64,000 bases of DNA from Hyphomicrobiales bacterium (GCA_031423895.1 JANPGK010000012.1:73-64072); one strand, 5' to 3'. Counted from the stretch's first letter, positions 12,744 through 14,730 are shown. The notes: generated by a model from the sequence alone, not told the origin. Program-made: numbers and translations.

Positions 12744-12796
12744 CACCAATAGATAAATAATATAACCAAAAAACATCATATTAGGAGATAAATAAA

Positions 12797-13126
12797 ATGA
12801 GTATAGACCTAAATACATTAAATGATATGTTCAACTCATTACATACAAAATATGACTATTATTTTAATAATGCTTATATTTTAGATAAACTACAAAAACG
12901 AGATCTAACCTTAGCCAACAACAATTTAACACGCGTATCACAATTTTTAAGTGCTGCAAATCCAACTCCTGCAGCACTTAAAATAGCGAATACGAATCTC
13001 ATAACAGTTGCAAATTACTTTGCTAATTTCCCAAAAATTCCTGGTGCGGCATTACTCATTGGTGGATTTGTGGCTGCGGCCTCATGGTGGAGCAACATCA
13101 AATCGACACCACGCAATTGGTCATAA
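12797..13126 (+). CDS. Small tail-anchored protein, family member P1 (109 aa)
   Basis: aggag lies 9 nt upstream. The gene is AT-rich. The C-terminus is LLIGGFVAAASWWSNIKSTPRNWS (TM helix plus WW-x-N-x-K cap). It is a paralogue of P2 and P4. Confidence 0.8.
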   Translation: MSIDLNTLNDMFNSLHTKYDYYFNNAYILDKLQKRDLTLANNNLTRVSQFLSAANPTPAALKIANTNLITVANYFANFPKIPGAALLIGGFVAAASWWSNIKSTPRNWS

Positions 13127-13219
13127 CACTCGCCCACTAATTTTAGGGTTGTAATTCATATATATACAGTAATATTTTAGATGTTAGAATGCTTTTTAAC
13201 CAATAATAGAGATCAGAAA

Positions 13220-13576
13220 ATGACAATTTCAGAATTAAAATTTAAACTAGAAAATCTCACACAAGAATATGTGGCGTTTAACAAATATGTTAATAGTTTA
13301 AGTCCAATACAACAGAACCAGCTTACAAATATGGCACCAAAATGTTTTGATGCTGTAAAAAACAATTTACCTTTTGCCGCTGACAGTGCATTCAGCTTTA
13401 ATATAGTTAAGCAGCAAATTGGCCACTTGGAATATTACGCAGCCAGTTTTCGTAAAACGCTAGGGCCTATGGGGCTTAAGCTCATGTCAACTGGGAGCGT
13501 GCTTATAGGCGGCATTTTTGTAGCTACATCTGCATGGTGGAACAGCCGTAAAACGGAACGCAACACTTTGTCATAA
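13220..13576 (+). CDS. Small tail-anchored protein, family member P2 (118 aa; alternative ATG at 13181)
   Basis: MTISELKFKLENLTQEY..LEYYAASFRKTLG..VLIGGIFVATSAWWNSRKTERNTLS. I chose the start by N-terminal homology to P1 and P4. Confidence 0.78.
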   Translation: MTISELKFKLENLTQEYVAFNKYVNSLSPIQQNQLTNMAPKCFDAVKNNLPFAADSAFSFNIVKQQIGHLEYYAASFRKTLGPMGLKLMSTGSVLIGGIFVATSAWWNSRKTERNTLS

Positions 13577-13762
13577 ATTAGTTATTGGATAAGTGCGGCC
13601 TTAGCTCTGTAAATAGAGACAATCATTAATTTTATACTGCGCTATATGTAAAATATGTATAGCTGCACTGCAAAAGGCCCAGATTGACTCCAATTCGTTT
13701 CACCACAATGATATTTAAGTAGCCTTATTCGAATGCTATTTTTTTAAAATGGAGTGAATATT

Positions 13763-14311
13763 ATGAATAGTGGATATCAACCAATCTCTGGTTCACATGT
13801 TACCAAATCAAAAGATTTCTTTGATGGAAAAAATAAGTTTGACTTTGGAACATACTATAACCGTGTGGTAAAACGTATTGACACAGCAACTATTGAATTT
13901 CGTAATGCTGCTGGCATAGCAGCACCTGCACCATATCAAAACAAAGGGCTTGTGAAATTCAGTGATATTACGCCTGAGCGCCATGGTTGGGGGGTACCAA
14001 AACCATTAAAAACACCACTTTTTGGTGAATTCGGAAAGGTTGAGGCCTCTATTGCAAAAGCCACGCAATATTTATGGAAAATGACGGGCGGCACATTGGG
14101 TCGAGATGGAACCCTATTTAAATCCGCAATGATGAAACTTACACACAGTGAAATTAAAAGCATTCACAATGCGCAGCGACGGGCCTATTATCATTTGCGA
14201 AATGCCGAGAAACTACTCGCTACGCTGTGTGAAAATACAAAAGTACCACTGGTTGCTGCTGGGCTTGCACTTCTTGCATTTATAATGCCCTCGCAAAAAT
14301 CCGATACGTGA
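13763..14311 (+). CDS. Tail-anchored orphan protein P3 (182 aa; alternative GTG at 13754)
   Basis: ggag lies 9 nt upstream of the ATG. The N-domain is unrelated to P1, P2 and P4, but the protein ends in a single helix VPLVAAGLALLAFIMPSQKSDT. Confidence 0.7.
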   Translation: MNSGYQPISGSHVTKSKDFFDGKNKFDFGTYYNRVVKRIDTATIEFRNAAGIAAPAPYQNKGLVKFSDITPERHGWGVPKPLKTPLFGEFGKVEASIAKATQYLWKMTGGTLGRDGTLFKSAMMKLTHSEIKSIHNAQRRAYYHLRNAEKLLATLCENTKVPLVAAGLALLAFIMPSQKSDT

Positions 14312-14367
14312 ACTTATACCCAAAACAATATTATTCTCGATATAATTGGTAATCAATATATAATATA

Positions 14368-14715
14368 TTGAACATAGACCATGTACAAATTTTGCTCGAT
14401 CTCAATAGAAAACTAGAAAGACTAACCGTAGAATATACATTTTTTAATAAAAATATAGATCTTTTATCGGAACTTGAACAAACAAATCTTAGATTATCAA
14501 AATATAACTTTAATGCAGCTAATACATTTCTCGCAATTGCATCGCCGGGCGACTCAAATGTGAACATAGCTAAGCTTGATATTAATGTGTTGGAAGATTA
14601 TGCCAAAAGCTTTCGAAAAACACTCAACCTCCCTCAATTCATTTTAATTGGCGGCGCAATGGTTATGTTTTCATGGTGGAAGAACCGCAAAACTGAGCCA
14701 ACCACTTGGGCATGA
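14368..14715 (+). CDS. Small tail-anchored protein, family member P4 (115 aa, apparent TTG start)
   Basis: (TTG)NIDHVQILLDLNRKLERLTVEY..LEDYAKSFRKTLN..ILIGGAMVMFSWWKNRKTEPTTWA. No in-frame ATG occurs before the TM helix. Confidence 0.7.
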   Translation: MNIDHVQILLDLNRKLERLTVEYTFFNKNIDLLSELEQTNLRLSKYNFNAANTFLAIASPGDSNVNIAKLDINVLEDYAKSFRKTLNLPQFILIGGAMVMFSWWKNRKTEPTTWA

Positions 14716-14730
14716 GTGTTGCAAAATTGC

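Follow-up and report, generated by a model that had tools for sequence, protein, structure and literature searches.

What are the four small genes that sit between hisD and fliE, and do they belong with the chromosome around them? The window considered here is one 64,000-nucleotide (64-kb) stretch of DNA from a Hyphomicrobiales bacterium. Within it a gap, 12744-14730, runs from just after the stop of hisD (12743) to the stop of fliE (14731), and it is wholly occupied by four ORFs, P1 to P4, all on the + strand. hisD is co-directional with this array and fliE is convergent with it. Composition profiles and exact counts mark the gap as an AT-rich island. Its G+C content is 36.0%, compared with 57.4% for hisD and 52.9% for fliE, and in the profile G+C drops from 0.53-0.62 to 0.20-0.23 inside about 40 nt after the hisD stop. 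The original prediction had put a composition switch just past hisD on counts of 36/60 and 11/60 G+C, and a recount gave exactly these values. Across the island G+C is 32-41%, no higher than in core intergenic DNA (about 40-45%), and GC3 is about 0.26-0.35 against about 0.6 for core genes.

The island also lies at a synteny break. A scan with hisD found best relatives of at most 65% identity, with fliE after hisD in 0 of 80 loci, and a scan of metagenomes with fliE gave matches of at most 42%. Searches of 12744-14730 found neither a tRNA or Rfam family nor an integrase or flanking repeat, and sigma-54 and CtrA-box scans of the island gave nothing beyond chance. We regard the island as accessory DNA, either foreign or fast-drifting native. 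There is a known precedent for such DNA. In alphaproteobacteria the xenogeneic silencer MucR keeps AT-rich accessory genes silent (PMC9410896), and the island resembles its target islands in having a G+C drop of about 17-20 points with sharp borders, lineage-specific content, and a place between conserved core genes. It differs from typical AT-rich accessory islands in that no mobility genes were found, and an insertion scar is present at one of the five islands here. That scar is at the ORF Q39, discussed below; the search for scars at the P island and three other islands found none.

All four ORFs appear in the ORF list at the positions first predicted, and the peptides quoted for them were exact. 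The chance of such open frames in 35% G+C DNA is about 1e-5 to 3e-4 per ORF, and about 2e-4 for P4. P1 (12797-13126, 109 aa) has the Shine-Dalgarno sequence AGGAG 9 nt 5' of its ATG, and its layout is a helical N-domain followed by LLIGGFVAAASWW and then SNIKSTPRNWS. It is found in the public gene calls as a singleton cluster. P2 (13220-13576) is 118 aa long when read from MTISEL, a start at 13220 that agrees with both the public call and the N-terminal alignment, and it has an insertion of 7-9 residues ahead of its hydrophobic stretch. P3 (13763-14311, 182 aa) is an orphan with no similarity to the other three. Its ATG follows a GGAG, the longest ORF being read from a GTG at 13754, and it ends in the hydrophobic stretch VPLVAAGLALLAFIM and then PSQKSDT. 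P4 (14368-14715, 115 aa) is known from the ORF list, the alignment and an AlphaFold model, and it is missing from the public gene calls that contain P1, P2 and P3. In the alignment its TTG start falls on the ATG of P1, and its stop is 15 nt from the convergent fliE stop. With TTG as its start codon and no Shine-Dalgarno sequence, P4 may be poorly expressed.

P1, P2 and P4 are paralogues, which we call the P family. BLASTP relates P1 to P2 at E=1e-5, P2 to P4 at E=2e-19 (41% identity) and P1 to P4 at E=6e-15. Against shuffled controls the Smith-Waterman scores have z values of 8.9 (P1/P2), 29.2 (P2/P4) and 20.9 (P1/P4), and none of 300 shuffles scores as high. The three are in tandem and can be aligned from end to end, and P4, the central paralogue, is closest to both of the others. 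This pattern agrees with the local duplication and divergence originally proposed. The duplications are old rather than recent, to judge from the sequences: at the DNA level they are about 48-54% identical, with saturation at synonymous sites (pS 0.62-0.69).

Coding constraint can be read most clearly in the pair P2/P4. The two differ at codon positions 1, 2 and 3 in 47, 37 and 67 of 109 cases (chi-square p=1.8e-4), so the equal rates at all positions that would have spoken against the original prediction are not seen here. For the pairs with P1 the same test gives p 0.15-0.32, because of saturation. It had also been argued that selection acts on the anchor, and the data bear this out modestly. 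The pN/pS of the C-terminal module is 0.39-0.64 and that of the N-domain 0.70-1.03, with the same direction in all three pairs, the narrowest contrast being that of P1/P4 (0.64 in the C-module against 0.70 in the N-domain). At the DNA level, the sole repeat family common to P1, P2 and P4 is a 42-nt stretch, WW..K..stop, that encodes the WW-basic cap. It lies at 13083-13124 on the + strand in P1 with counterparts at 13533-13574 and 14672-14713, and it is 67-76% identical. P3 stands apart from all of this. Its N-domain is unrelated, as first claimed (P3 against P4, E=0.65), but the claim that it has the same terminal helix does not hold. Its tail has no LIGG, no WW and no basic cap, and against zone-preserving shuffles it scores z -0.3 to -0.8. 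Going by sequence comparison, P3 and the P family share a hydrophobic C-terminal stretch in position only.

It is worth asking whether relatives elsewhere could tell us what these proteins do. A profile of P1, P2 and P4 searched against 5.8e9 proteins found nothing beyond the array's own proteins, and a full HMMER search with the P-family profile of 1.84 billion (1.84e9) representative proteins found P1 and P2 only. Among the same 5.8e9 proteins P3 has no homologue, and a profile of the tail module alone has no relatives outside the array. Scans of metagenome and viral contigs gave no relatives, and plasmids, phage genomes and PDB sequences gave no match. Pfam and NCBIfam contain nothing significant for P1-P4. 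PHROGs and PADLOC have no significant match either (non-significant E>=0.01): P1-P3 have no hit there, and P4 has one non-significant PHROG hit at E 0.037. On these searches the P family is a strict orphan, present in one genome in public data. P1, P2 and P4 form a genuine lineage-specific family of a rather ordinary kind, a well-defined orphan and not a new mechanism. The array has no partner genes and no homologue to lend it a function, which speaks against reading the tails as anchors.

The tails themselves have to be described with some care. The motif first proposed for them, with a spacing of x7-9 between GG and WW, fails as a regular expression on P1, P2 and P4; the working motif for the three is [LI]IGG-x(6,7)-WW-x-[NS]-x-K-[ST]-x-[PR]. 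In each of P1-P4 the C-terminal segment, which falls in the last ~30 residues, is the sole hydrophobic one (Kyte-Doolittle >=1.6 over 15 residues), and the N-termini are polar, with no N-terminal signal peptide. The hydrophobic stretch of the tails covers 13-15 residues and is of marginal hydrophobicity. Hessa free-energy sums over 19 residues are +2.9 to +6.7 kcal/mol for the tails; 26 genuine TM segments of the window give -3.9 to +3.2, and soluble enzymes have +4.0 to +9.8 in their best segments. At +3.0 to +5.9, the P1-P4 sums are above all but one of the 26 TM segments and overlap with the best that soluble enzymes offer. The E. coli tail-bearing proteins ElaB and YqjD give +2.4 and +1.5, lower than P1-P4. 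When 15 residues are summed the tails have values of -0.4 to +2.5, mostly better than the +1.0 to +5.9 of soluble enzymes. The P-family segment FILIGGAMVMFSWW is uniformly apolar and not amphipathic, and the aromatic belt and basic residues that come after it look interface-like. The tails of P1, P2 and P4 have a net charge of +2. We infer that these three proteins are probably tail-anchored. Such an anchor requires a Lys/Arg-rich tail to cross the membrane, which counts against it; ElaB and YqjD do this with an RR end.

AlphaFold predicts a confident three-helix bundle (pLDDT about 90) and then a separate C-terminal helix, whose confidence is below 50 and which is not placed confidently on the bundle. 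The P4 model as a whole has a pLDDT of 77, with predicted helices at 3-28, 35-55, 62-86 and 92-108. The P3 model is helical and of low confidence (pLDDT 47). The best structural neighbours are generic soluble three-helix bundles, none of them significant (best E=0.04), and structure libraries gave no match for the P family.

Our leading explanation, to which we would give somewhat less than an even chance, is that P1, P2 and P4 are small, lineage-specific C-tail-anchored membrane proteins and that P3 is a second, unrelated protein of like architecture. The proteins would be made without a signal peptide, and the N-terminal residues, about 85 of them, would form the three-helix bundle and stay in the cytoplasm. 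The short glycine-containing helix ([LI]IGG-x6-7) would enter the cell's own inner membrane post-translationally. The biogenesis of bacterial tail-anchored proteins is post-translational and goes through YidC, SRP or DnaK (PMC3426401, PMC6794478), and by analogy insertion here might use YidC with help from DnaK or SRP. At the membrane interface, the Trp-Trp belt and the Lys/Arg-rich tail, 10-12 residues long, would then hold the end of the protein in place. The P family may have expanded inside the AT-rich island by old tandem duplications, after which the bundle could diverge freely and the anchor module would be kept under stronger purifying selection. Free divergence of the bundle with a constrained anchor fits a common membrane address that carries diversified binding heads. 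The cell's own membrane is the default destination because the window shows a metabolically complete, flagellated alphaproteobacterium. It encodes His, Trp and aromatic amino-acid biosynthesis, GOGAT, TCA-cycle enzymes and flagella.

There is a known group of proteins that looks like this. YqjD, ElaB and YgaM are E. coli inner-membrane proteins of about 100 aa whose helical head is followed by a Gly-rich C-terminal TM with a basic end; they bind the 50S subunit, inhibit translation and act in ribosome hibernation (10.1101/2024.08.16.608256). The P family is like these DUF883 proteins in its size (about 100-115 aa), in having no signal peptide and several paralogues per genome, and in its all-helical head (cytoplasmic in DUF883), glycine-containing C-terminal hydrophobic helix, nearby Trp and basic C-terminus. 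There is no sequence relationship, however. The hhalign probability against ElaB/YqjD is 0.24%, and the Pfam models DUF883 (PF05957) and DUF883_C (PF19029) have no match in P1-P4 at E<=1. As a positive control, ElaB and YqjD match both models, the DUF883 N-domain at 1e-9 and 4e-13. The tails are also built differently. In DUF883 a Pro-Trp precedes the glycine-zipper TM (GxGxxAxGxxxG), which is about 20 residues long and ends in RR or RK, whereas the P family has LIGG within a stretch of 13-15 residues and WW plus basic residues after it. DUF883 is widespread and the P family is in one genome. TssL/SciP, Flk and DjlC offer a second comparison, since they too join an N-domain (cytoplasmic in those proteins) to a single C-terminal hydrophobic segment (PMC3426401, PMC6794478). 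They are larger and have recognisable domains that place them in the T6SS, a flagellar checkpoint and the J-domain chaperones, and Pfam and NCBIfam detect no such domain in P1-P4.

The P island is not the only place in the window with AT-rich orphans of this kind. Q57 (57385-57789, + strand, 134 aa) has a tail, ILVLAGLVGASAWFASRNLSK, that is like the P-family tail. BLASTP against P2 gives E=0.001, confined to the last 26 residues, and an hhalign alignment covers profile positions 71-105. With its own sequence excluded from the tail profile, Q57 ranks 1st of 1230 ORFs (E=0.049), and its tail scores z 3.2-4.5 against the P family with zone-preserving shuffles. This is suggestive of homology between the two tails and does not prove it. 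The original prediction called for an alignment that included a "P5" but left it undefined; the ORF at 57385-57789 is the best candidate in the window. Q33 (33221-33694, - strand, 157 aa) ends in the stretch ISSIIGVACASVWAYSRT and overlaps the 3' end of the convergent ccmA by 26 nt. Its tail is like that of Q57 (z 6.8), with a BLASTP score that is not significant and a leave-one-out rank of 11. Q39 (39298-39705, - strand, 135 aa) is antisense between ccmB and ccmC and ends in LRLLIGALALFGV and then ERAVRKP. It is flanked by a 37-nt direct repeat, 39247-39283 and 39778-39814, with 30/37 positions identical (z=13). Q45 (45243-45728, + strand, 161 aa) is antisense between tilS and ftsH, and its C-terminal stretch GLCTVALLVSAAL has no sequence similarity to the other tails. 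What these orphans have in common is architecture. The most hydrophobic 15-mer ends at most 20 residues from the C-terminus in 8/10 AT-rich orphans and in 5/44 core proteins (Fisher p=4.5e-5; taking the P family as a single case, 5e-4).

One can imagine that all eight tail-bearing orphans form a superfamily, but this is unproven. Modest reciprocal similarity, in the tail only, is seen for Q57 alone; Q33 is linked weakly via Q57, and Q39, Q45 and P3 show none. No DNA motifs common to the islands were found. We also considered that the tail derives from the antisense terminator of a convergent gene, and there is no terminator-like hairpin in the tail-coding region of P4. The orphans of the window are placed stop-to-stop against core genes, and those of like architecture adjoin ccmA, ccmB, tilS and coaBC. 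The repeat around Q39 is a clear insertion scar at ccmB, and it hints that genes were inserted one at a time. A bolder proposal is that AT-rich orphans, at least 8 in 64 kb, form a genome-wide repertoire that is densest at the array, and that they use a short hydrophobic helix with an aromatic/basic cap as a common address for diverse small helical heads. The tail would then be a tail-anchor-based targeting or secretion signal to one membrane, be it the cell's own, a host's or a competitor's, and the genes would have been inserted singly at core-gene 3' ends by an unrecognised mechanism. We think this rather improbable as it stands.

The preferred explanation has to be weighed against readings that put these proteins elsewhere, or nowhere. 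They might be transmembrane effectors that a type IV system, or another secretion system needing cell contact, delivers into competitors or a eukaryotic host. Being short and moderately hydrophobic, the tail would escape SRP in the bacterium and later anchor in the ER, the mitochondrial outer membrane or peroxisomes, and the basic C-terminus would double as the secretion signal. Orphan, AT-rich, multicopy genes scattered between core genes are typical of effector repertoires, and a conserved C-terminus with a variable N-domain fits. Like type III/IV effectors, the array's proteins have a moderately hydrophobic C-proximal segment and would carry their address at the C-terminus (PMC12981334, PMC12313075). 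Their tails are less hydrophobic than the cell's own TM segments, as in the class of "intermediate hydrophobicity, direct secretion" known among T3SS and T4SS membrane effectors (PMC12981334). Tail-anchored effectors exist, for example Legionella LpPIP (PMC12313075), and bacterial tail anchors with basic ends can reach mitochondria or peroxisomes (PMC5525287, 10.1101/437855). The +2 charge of the P1, P2 and P4 tails also fits the effector reading. However, none of these proteins is similar in sequence to any effector family, and the 64-kb window has no secretion-system gene apart from flagellar export (fliP and a fliO-like gene). Nor does the window show any eukaryote-like domain or sign of host dependence; it encodes the biosynthesis, TCA cycle and flagella noted above. 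We consider secretion unlikely. A similar doubt applies to the idea that the proteins never enter a membrane, or do so only on a trigger. The C-terminal helix would pack on the three-helix bundle to give a four-helix protein, and the genes would encode small toxins, immunity, phage-exclusion or stress proteins. Small diverged genes in tandem are a typical picture in immunity-gene and orphan-module arrays. The tail is short and marginally hydrophobic, and the best structural neighbours, insignificant as they are, are soluble. Against this the FILIGGAMVMFSWW segment is uniformly apolar and is followed by interface-like aromatic and basic residues, and AlphaFold does not pack the helix on the bundle with confidence. 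Toxin, nuclease and phage genes are absent beside the array, and PADLOC and PHROGs have no significant match. A soluble or conditionally membrane-active bundle is also an unlikely answer.

The array could instead be decaying or neutral DNA, made up of foreign-gene remnants or of young proto-genes that at present do little or nothing, and held silent by a MucR-type system. The low G+C and GC3 of the island are in line with this, as are the TTG start of P4 without a Shine-Dalgarno sequence and N-domain pN/pS values up to 0.7-1.0. Low-G+C orphan genes have been linked with phage or non-coding origins (PMC11293555), and MucR is known to silence AT-rich accessory genes (PMC9410896). Yet all frames are intact although synonymous divergence is saturated, the codon-position test is positive for P2/P4 (p=1.8e-4), pN/pS in the C-module goes down to 0.39, and protein similarity has been kept at z=9-29. 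Silencing, moreover, is compatible with conditional function, and we find decay a distinctly unlikely account. The position beside fliE raises another scenario, in which the proteins are accessories of the flagellum, tied to the fliE-flgC-flgB and fliO-fliP cluster as membrane-tethered regulators or chaperones. Flagellar chaperones are small helical bundles. The array directly adjoins fliE, and enterobacterial Flk is a tail-anchored flagellar regulator (PMC6794478). But the array is read from the strand opposite to fliE, towards which it converges, and shares its direction with hisD; it is about 17 G+C points apart from the flagellar genes. CtrA-box-like sites are confined to the flgB/fliO intergenic region, with none inside the island, and no flagellar Pfam or NCBIfam model matches. 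Because similar orphans adjoin ccmA, ccmB, tilS and coaBC, the flagellar neighbourhood looks incidental, and a flagellar role is very improbable. Finally, the tail bears a superficial tripartite likeness (GG, hydrophobic stretch, basic residues) to processed sorting signals of the GlyGly-CTERM/rhombosortase or PEP-CTERM/exosortase type, which consist of a motif, a TM helix and a basic cluster. Those signals operate on proteins that are exported, and P1-P4 lack an N-terminal signal peptide. The 6-7 residues from GG to the Trp-Trp belt are the wrong spacing, too few for the TM part; no NCBIfam model matches at E<=1, and a sortase-like gene is absent from the window. This possibility is close to refuted.

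If the tail-anchored reading is right, and the proteins are both expressed and anchored in the membrane, the P family would be an independent example of the bacterial C-tail-anchored class, of which a handful of members have been studied. Its short GG-containing anchor of borderline hydrophobicity would then be a natural test of how much the insertion routes tolerate. The wider pattern of orphans with hydrophobic tails bears on how orphan genes enter alphaproteobacterial chromosomes and persist there, and it could point to an effector-like repertoire.

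The gap between hisD (11451-12743, + strand) and the convergent fliE (14731-15063, - strand, then flgC and flgB by their Pfam labels) runs exactly from stop to stop, 12744-14730. It holds four small ORFs, all on the + strand. P1 (12797-13126, 109 aa) has AGGAG 9 nt upstream of its ATG, P2 (13220-13576) encodes 118 aa and P3 (13763-14311, 182 aa) has GGAG upstream of its ATG. P4 (14368-14715, 115 aa) has a TTG start that aligns with the ATG of P1 and no Shine-Dalgarno. P1, P2 and P3 are in the public gene calls at identical coordinates; P4 is not called. G+C is 36.0% in the island, compared with 57.4% in hisD and 52.9% in fliE, and drops from about 0.55 to about 0.2 inside 40 nt of the hisD stop. 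The counts of 36/60 and 11/60 in the original prediction are exact on recount. The order murA-DUF2948-hisD is usual in Alphaproteobacteria, and murA is 72% identical to that of Bosea. Since fliE is downstream of hisD in 0 of 80 loci, the island lies at a synteny break. At 90% identity clustering hisD is a singleton; the closest relatives retrieved share 59-65% identity with it (Rhodobacteraceae, Bosea and others), and metagenome relatives of FliE are at most 42% identical.

Around its start P4 has an AT run that is close to palindromic (14353-14378, TCAATATATAATATATTGAACATAGA). The TTG follows 4 nt after the end of a promoter-like TCGATA-16-TATAAT, and P4 would therefore be nearly leaderless with a non-AUG start. 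This argues for weak translation or incipient loss.

P1, P2 and P4 (the P family) are indeed paralogues, with BLASTP E values of 2e-19 for P2/P4 (41% identity), 6e-15 for P1/P4 (30%) and 1e-5 for P1/P2 (28%). The Smith-Waterman z scores against shuffles are 29, 21 and 9 in the same order, and 0/300 shuffles reach the score. P3 has no relationship to them (E=0.65; z <0 against shuffles). It had been said to carry the same terminal helix, which it does not share; its tail is alike in architecture only. P2 and P4 differ at codon positions 1/2/3 in 47/37/67 of 109 codons (chi-square p=1.8e-4), with pN 0.40 and pS 0.69. Because substitution is unequal across codon positions, these two ORFs behave as coding, as predicted. 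Pairs that contain P1 give p=0.15-0.32 and are too saturated to resolve. The chance of each frame staying open at the local composition is about 1e-5 to 3e-4. All of these genes have a GC3 lower than their total G+C, while core (conserved housekeeping) genes show the reverse. DNA identity among the paralogues is about 48-54% and pS is 0.62-0.69; the duplications are old.

The C-terminal module of the three paralogues changes more slowly than their N-domain (pN/pS 0.39-0.64 versus 0.70-1.03). The 42 nt encoding its WW-basic cap are the only DNA repeat family joining all three paralogues. Of the original prediction, duplication, divergence and a tail under stronger constraint stand; the helix of P3 does not belong with the others. 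As first written, the motif fits none of the three paralogues; all three fit [LI]IGG-x(6,7)-WW-x-[NS]-x-K-[ST]-x-[PR].

AlphaFold2 on the P-family alignment gives a mean pLDDT of 77. Predicted helices at 3-28, 35-55 and 62-86 form a bundle (pLDDT about 90), and a predicted fourth helix at 92-108 falls below 50. Foldseek searches of PDB and BFVD with this model returned no significant match, only three-helix bundles of generic or designed kinds. The P3 model (pLDDT 47) is not useful. P1-P4 all lack a hydrophobic signal at the N-terminus. Each carries a single hydrophobic segment, which is short (13-15 residues) and ends 7-16 residues before the C-terminus. When Hessa-scale values are simply summed over 19 residues, the four tails score +3.0 to +5.9 kcal/mol. 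The same sum is -3.9 to +3.2 for 26 genuine TM segments (CcmB, CcmC, FliP, FtsH, CcmG, an acyltransferase and the FliO-like protein) and +4.0 to +9.8 for the most hydrophobic stretch of 13 soluble enzymes. E. coli ElaB and YqjD, whose sequences were confirmed as DUF883 members by Pfam match, score +2.4 and +1.5. Over 15 residues the tails are mostly better than the soluble enzymes (-0.4 to +2.5 vs +1.0 to +5.9). The position of the segment, its uniformly apolar character and the aromatic/basic cap make a tail anchor a reasonable inference. The segment is a candidate TM helix, short and with borderline 19-residue sums that overlap those of soluble enzymes.

A P1/P2/P4 profile matched only P1 and P2, both among 5.8 billion proteins and, without the word filter, among 1.84 billion cluster representatives. 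P3 matched only itself in the 5.8 billion. Scans of metagenome and viral contigs, plasmids, phage genomes and PDB sequences returned nothing for the array, and Pfam, NCBIfam, PHROGs and PADLOC give its proteins no significant match. The P family is new in sequence and of a known architectural kind. The closest studied analogue is the trio YqjD/ElaB/YgaM, which have about 100 aa, a helical head, a glycine-rich C-terminal TM beside a conserved Trp and a basic end. These also come as several paralogues, and they tether 50S subunits to the membrane (10.1101/2024.08.16.608256). Membership of the P family in that group is excluded: neither family Pfam model matches, while the positive controls ElaB and YqjD do match. 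The hhalign probability against ElaB/YqjD is 0.24%, and the order of motif elements differs.

A bacterial protein that lacks a signal peptide and joins a folded helical head to one apolar C-terminal helix capped by Trp and Lys/Arg would be a C-tail-anchored inner-membrane protein. That is our default reading of P1, P2 and P4, though we hold it tentatively, at a little short of an even chance. By analogy with TssL, DjlC and Flk, which insert post-translationally via YidC with SRP or DnaK (PMC3426401, PMC6794478), they would be inserted after translation by the same route. The main rival, which we think improbable, is that they are secreted effectors targeted to membranes. Their tails are of borderline hydrophobicity, as in the directly secreted class that evades SRP (PMC12981334). 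A conserved C-terminus with variable heads would suit this reading too, as would the orphan genes scattered through the window; however, the window shows no secretion system and no host-dependent lifestyle. A conditionally soluble four-helix form is somewhat less plausible still.

One can also imagine silenced or decaying genes, foreign or young. This scenario would be consistent with the silencing of AT-rich DNA by MucR (PMC9410896) and with the orphan classes of low G+C (PMC11293555), and we rank it below the soluble form as quite unlikely. An accessory role for the flagellum is very unlikely. A processed sorting signal deserves almost no credence, as P1-P4 are without a signal peptide and match no NCBIfam model.

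The flagellar genes have features of their own. Exact TTAA-N7-TTAA, which is CtrA-box-like, occurs only at 15985-15999 and 16086-16100 in the 64 kb, a count not above chance (2 observed vs 1.2 expected). Both sites fall within or on the border of the intergenic region between the divergent flgB and fliO-like genes, a placement that fits CtrA control of alphaproteobacterial flagellar genes. The 461-aa product of 16153-17538 (+), upstream of fliP, is weakly FliO-like in its first ~100 residues alone (E=0.002). Beyond them runs a long extension of low complexity, composed largely of Ala, Pro, Glu and Lys, and the protein is unusually large for FliO. Directly after fliP on the opposite strand, 18436-22122 (-) encodes a lineage-specific protein of 1228 aa that matches TPR/ANAPC3 only faintly.

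Housekeeping genes run through the window (dnaK, dnaJ, typA, murA, hisD, accBC, acnA, ccmABCG, NAD-GDH, ftsH, tilS, ahcY, gltBD, coaBC, trpF, sdhA), where core genes average 51% G+C. Ten genes at 32-41% G+C, at or below core intergenic DNA, break this run. Eight of them have a hydrophobic C-terminal stretch: P1-P4 and four named by start position, Q33 (33221-33694, -), Q39 (39298-39705, -), Q45 (45243-45728, +) and Q57 (57385-57789, +). These four encode 134-161 aa at 32-38% G+C, with a short hydrophobic stretch and then a polar or basic tail. All four appear in public gene calls, each as a singleton, and match no family, PHROGs and PADLOC included. In 8/10 orphans vs 5/44 core proteins, the 15-mer of highest hydrophobicity ends no more than 20 residues short of the C-terminus (Fisher p=4.5e-5; 5e-4 counting the P family once).

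Among other AT-rich genes, the product of 9180-9674 (+, 36% G+C) is a secreted 164-aa EF-hand protein that carries a signal peptide. The gene's internal 169-nt direct repeat (9244-9412 and 9457-9625) is 92% identical, which indicates that the EF-hand unit was recently duplicated. The orphan at 4840-6198 (-, 39% G+C, 452 aa), between a methyltransferase gene and rplS, has a good Shine-Dalgarno, no hydrophobic segment and no match in Pfam, PHROGs or PADLOC.

The likeness of Q57 to the P family is confined to the last 26-35 residues. BLASTP of P2 gives E=0.001, hhalign aligns profile positions 71-105, and a leave-one-out search with the tail profile puts Q57 at the top of 1230 ORFs (E=0.049). Against zone-preserving shuffles z is 3.2-4.5, and the likeness is modest. 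The Q33 tail weakly resembles that of Q57; those of Q39, Q45 and P3 are alike in architecture, with no sequence likeness. Because tail similarity is limited, no superfamily uniting these orphans is claimed.

At five loci an orphan stop abuts a convergent core-gene stop, with stop-to-stop distances of +15 nt (P4/fliE), -26 (Q33/ccmA), +1 (Q39/ccmB), -6 (Q45/tilS) and +2 (Q57/coaBC). Q39 and Q45 are antisense within the usual operons ccmB-ccmC and tilS-ftsH. Q45 splits tilS (45723-46730, -), whose 3' end it overlaps by 6 nt, from ftsH (43144-45075, -), a usually co-transcribed pair. A 37-nt direct repeat lies on either side of Q39 (39247-39283 and 39778-39814; 30/37 identical, z=13 vs shuffles). 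The copy adjoining ccmC translates as a displaced C-terminus of ccmB (..VAIFVTLAIVRIVLAR..): this is a clear insertion scar, with the gene end re-supplied. We found no comparable scar at the P island or the other three islands, and no DNA motifs common to the islands. The most interesting aspect lies beyond the tandem array of the original prediction: most AT-rich orphans in the stretch carry a similar tail and stand stop-to-stop against core genes.
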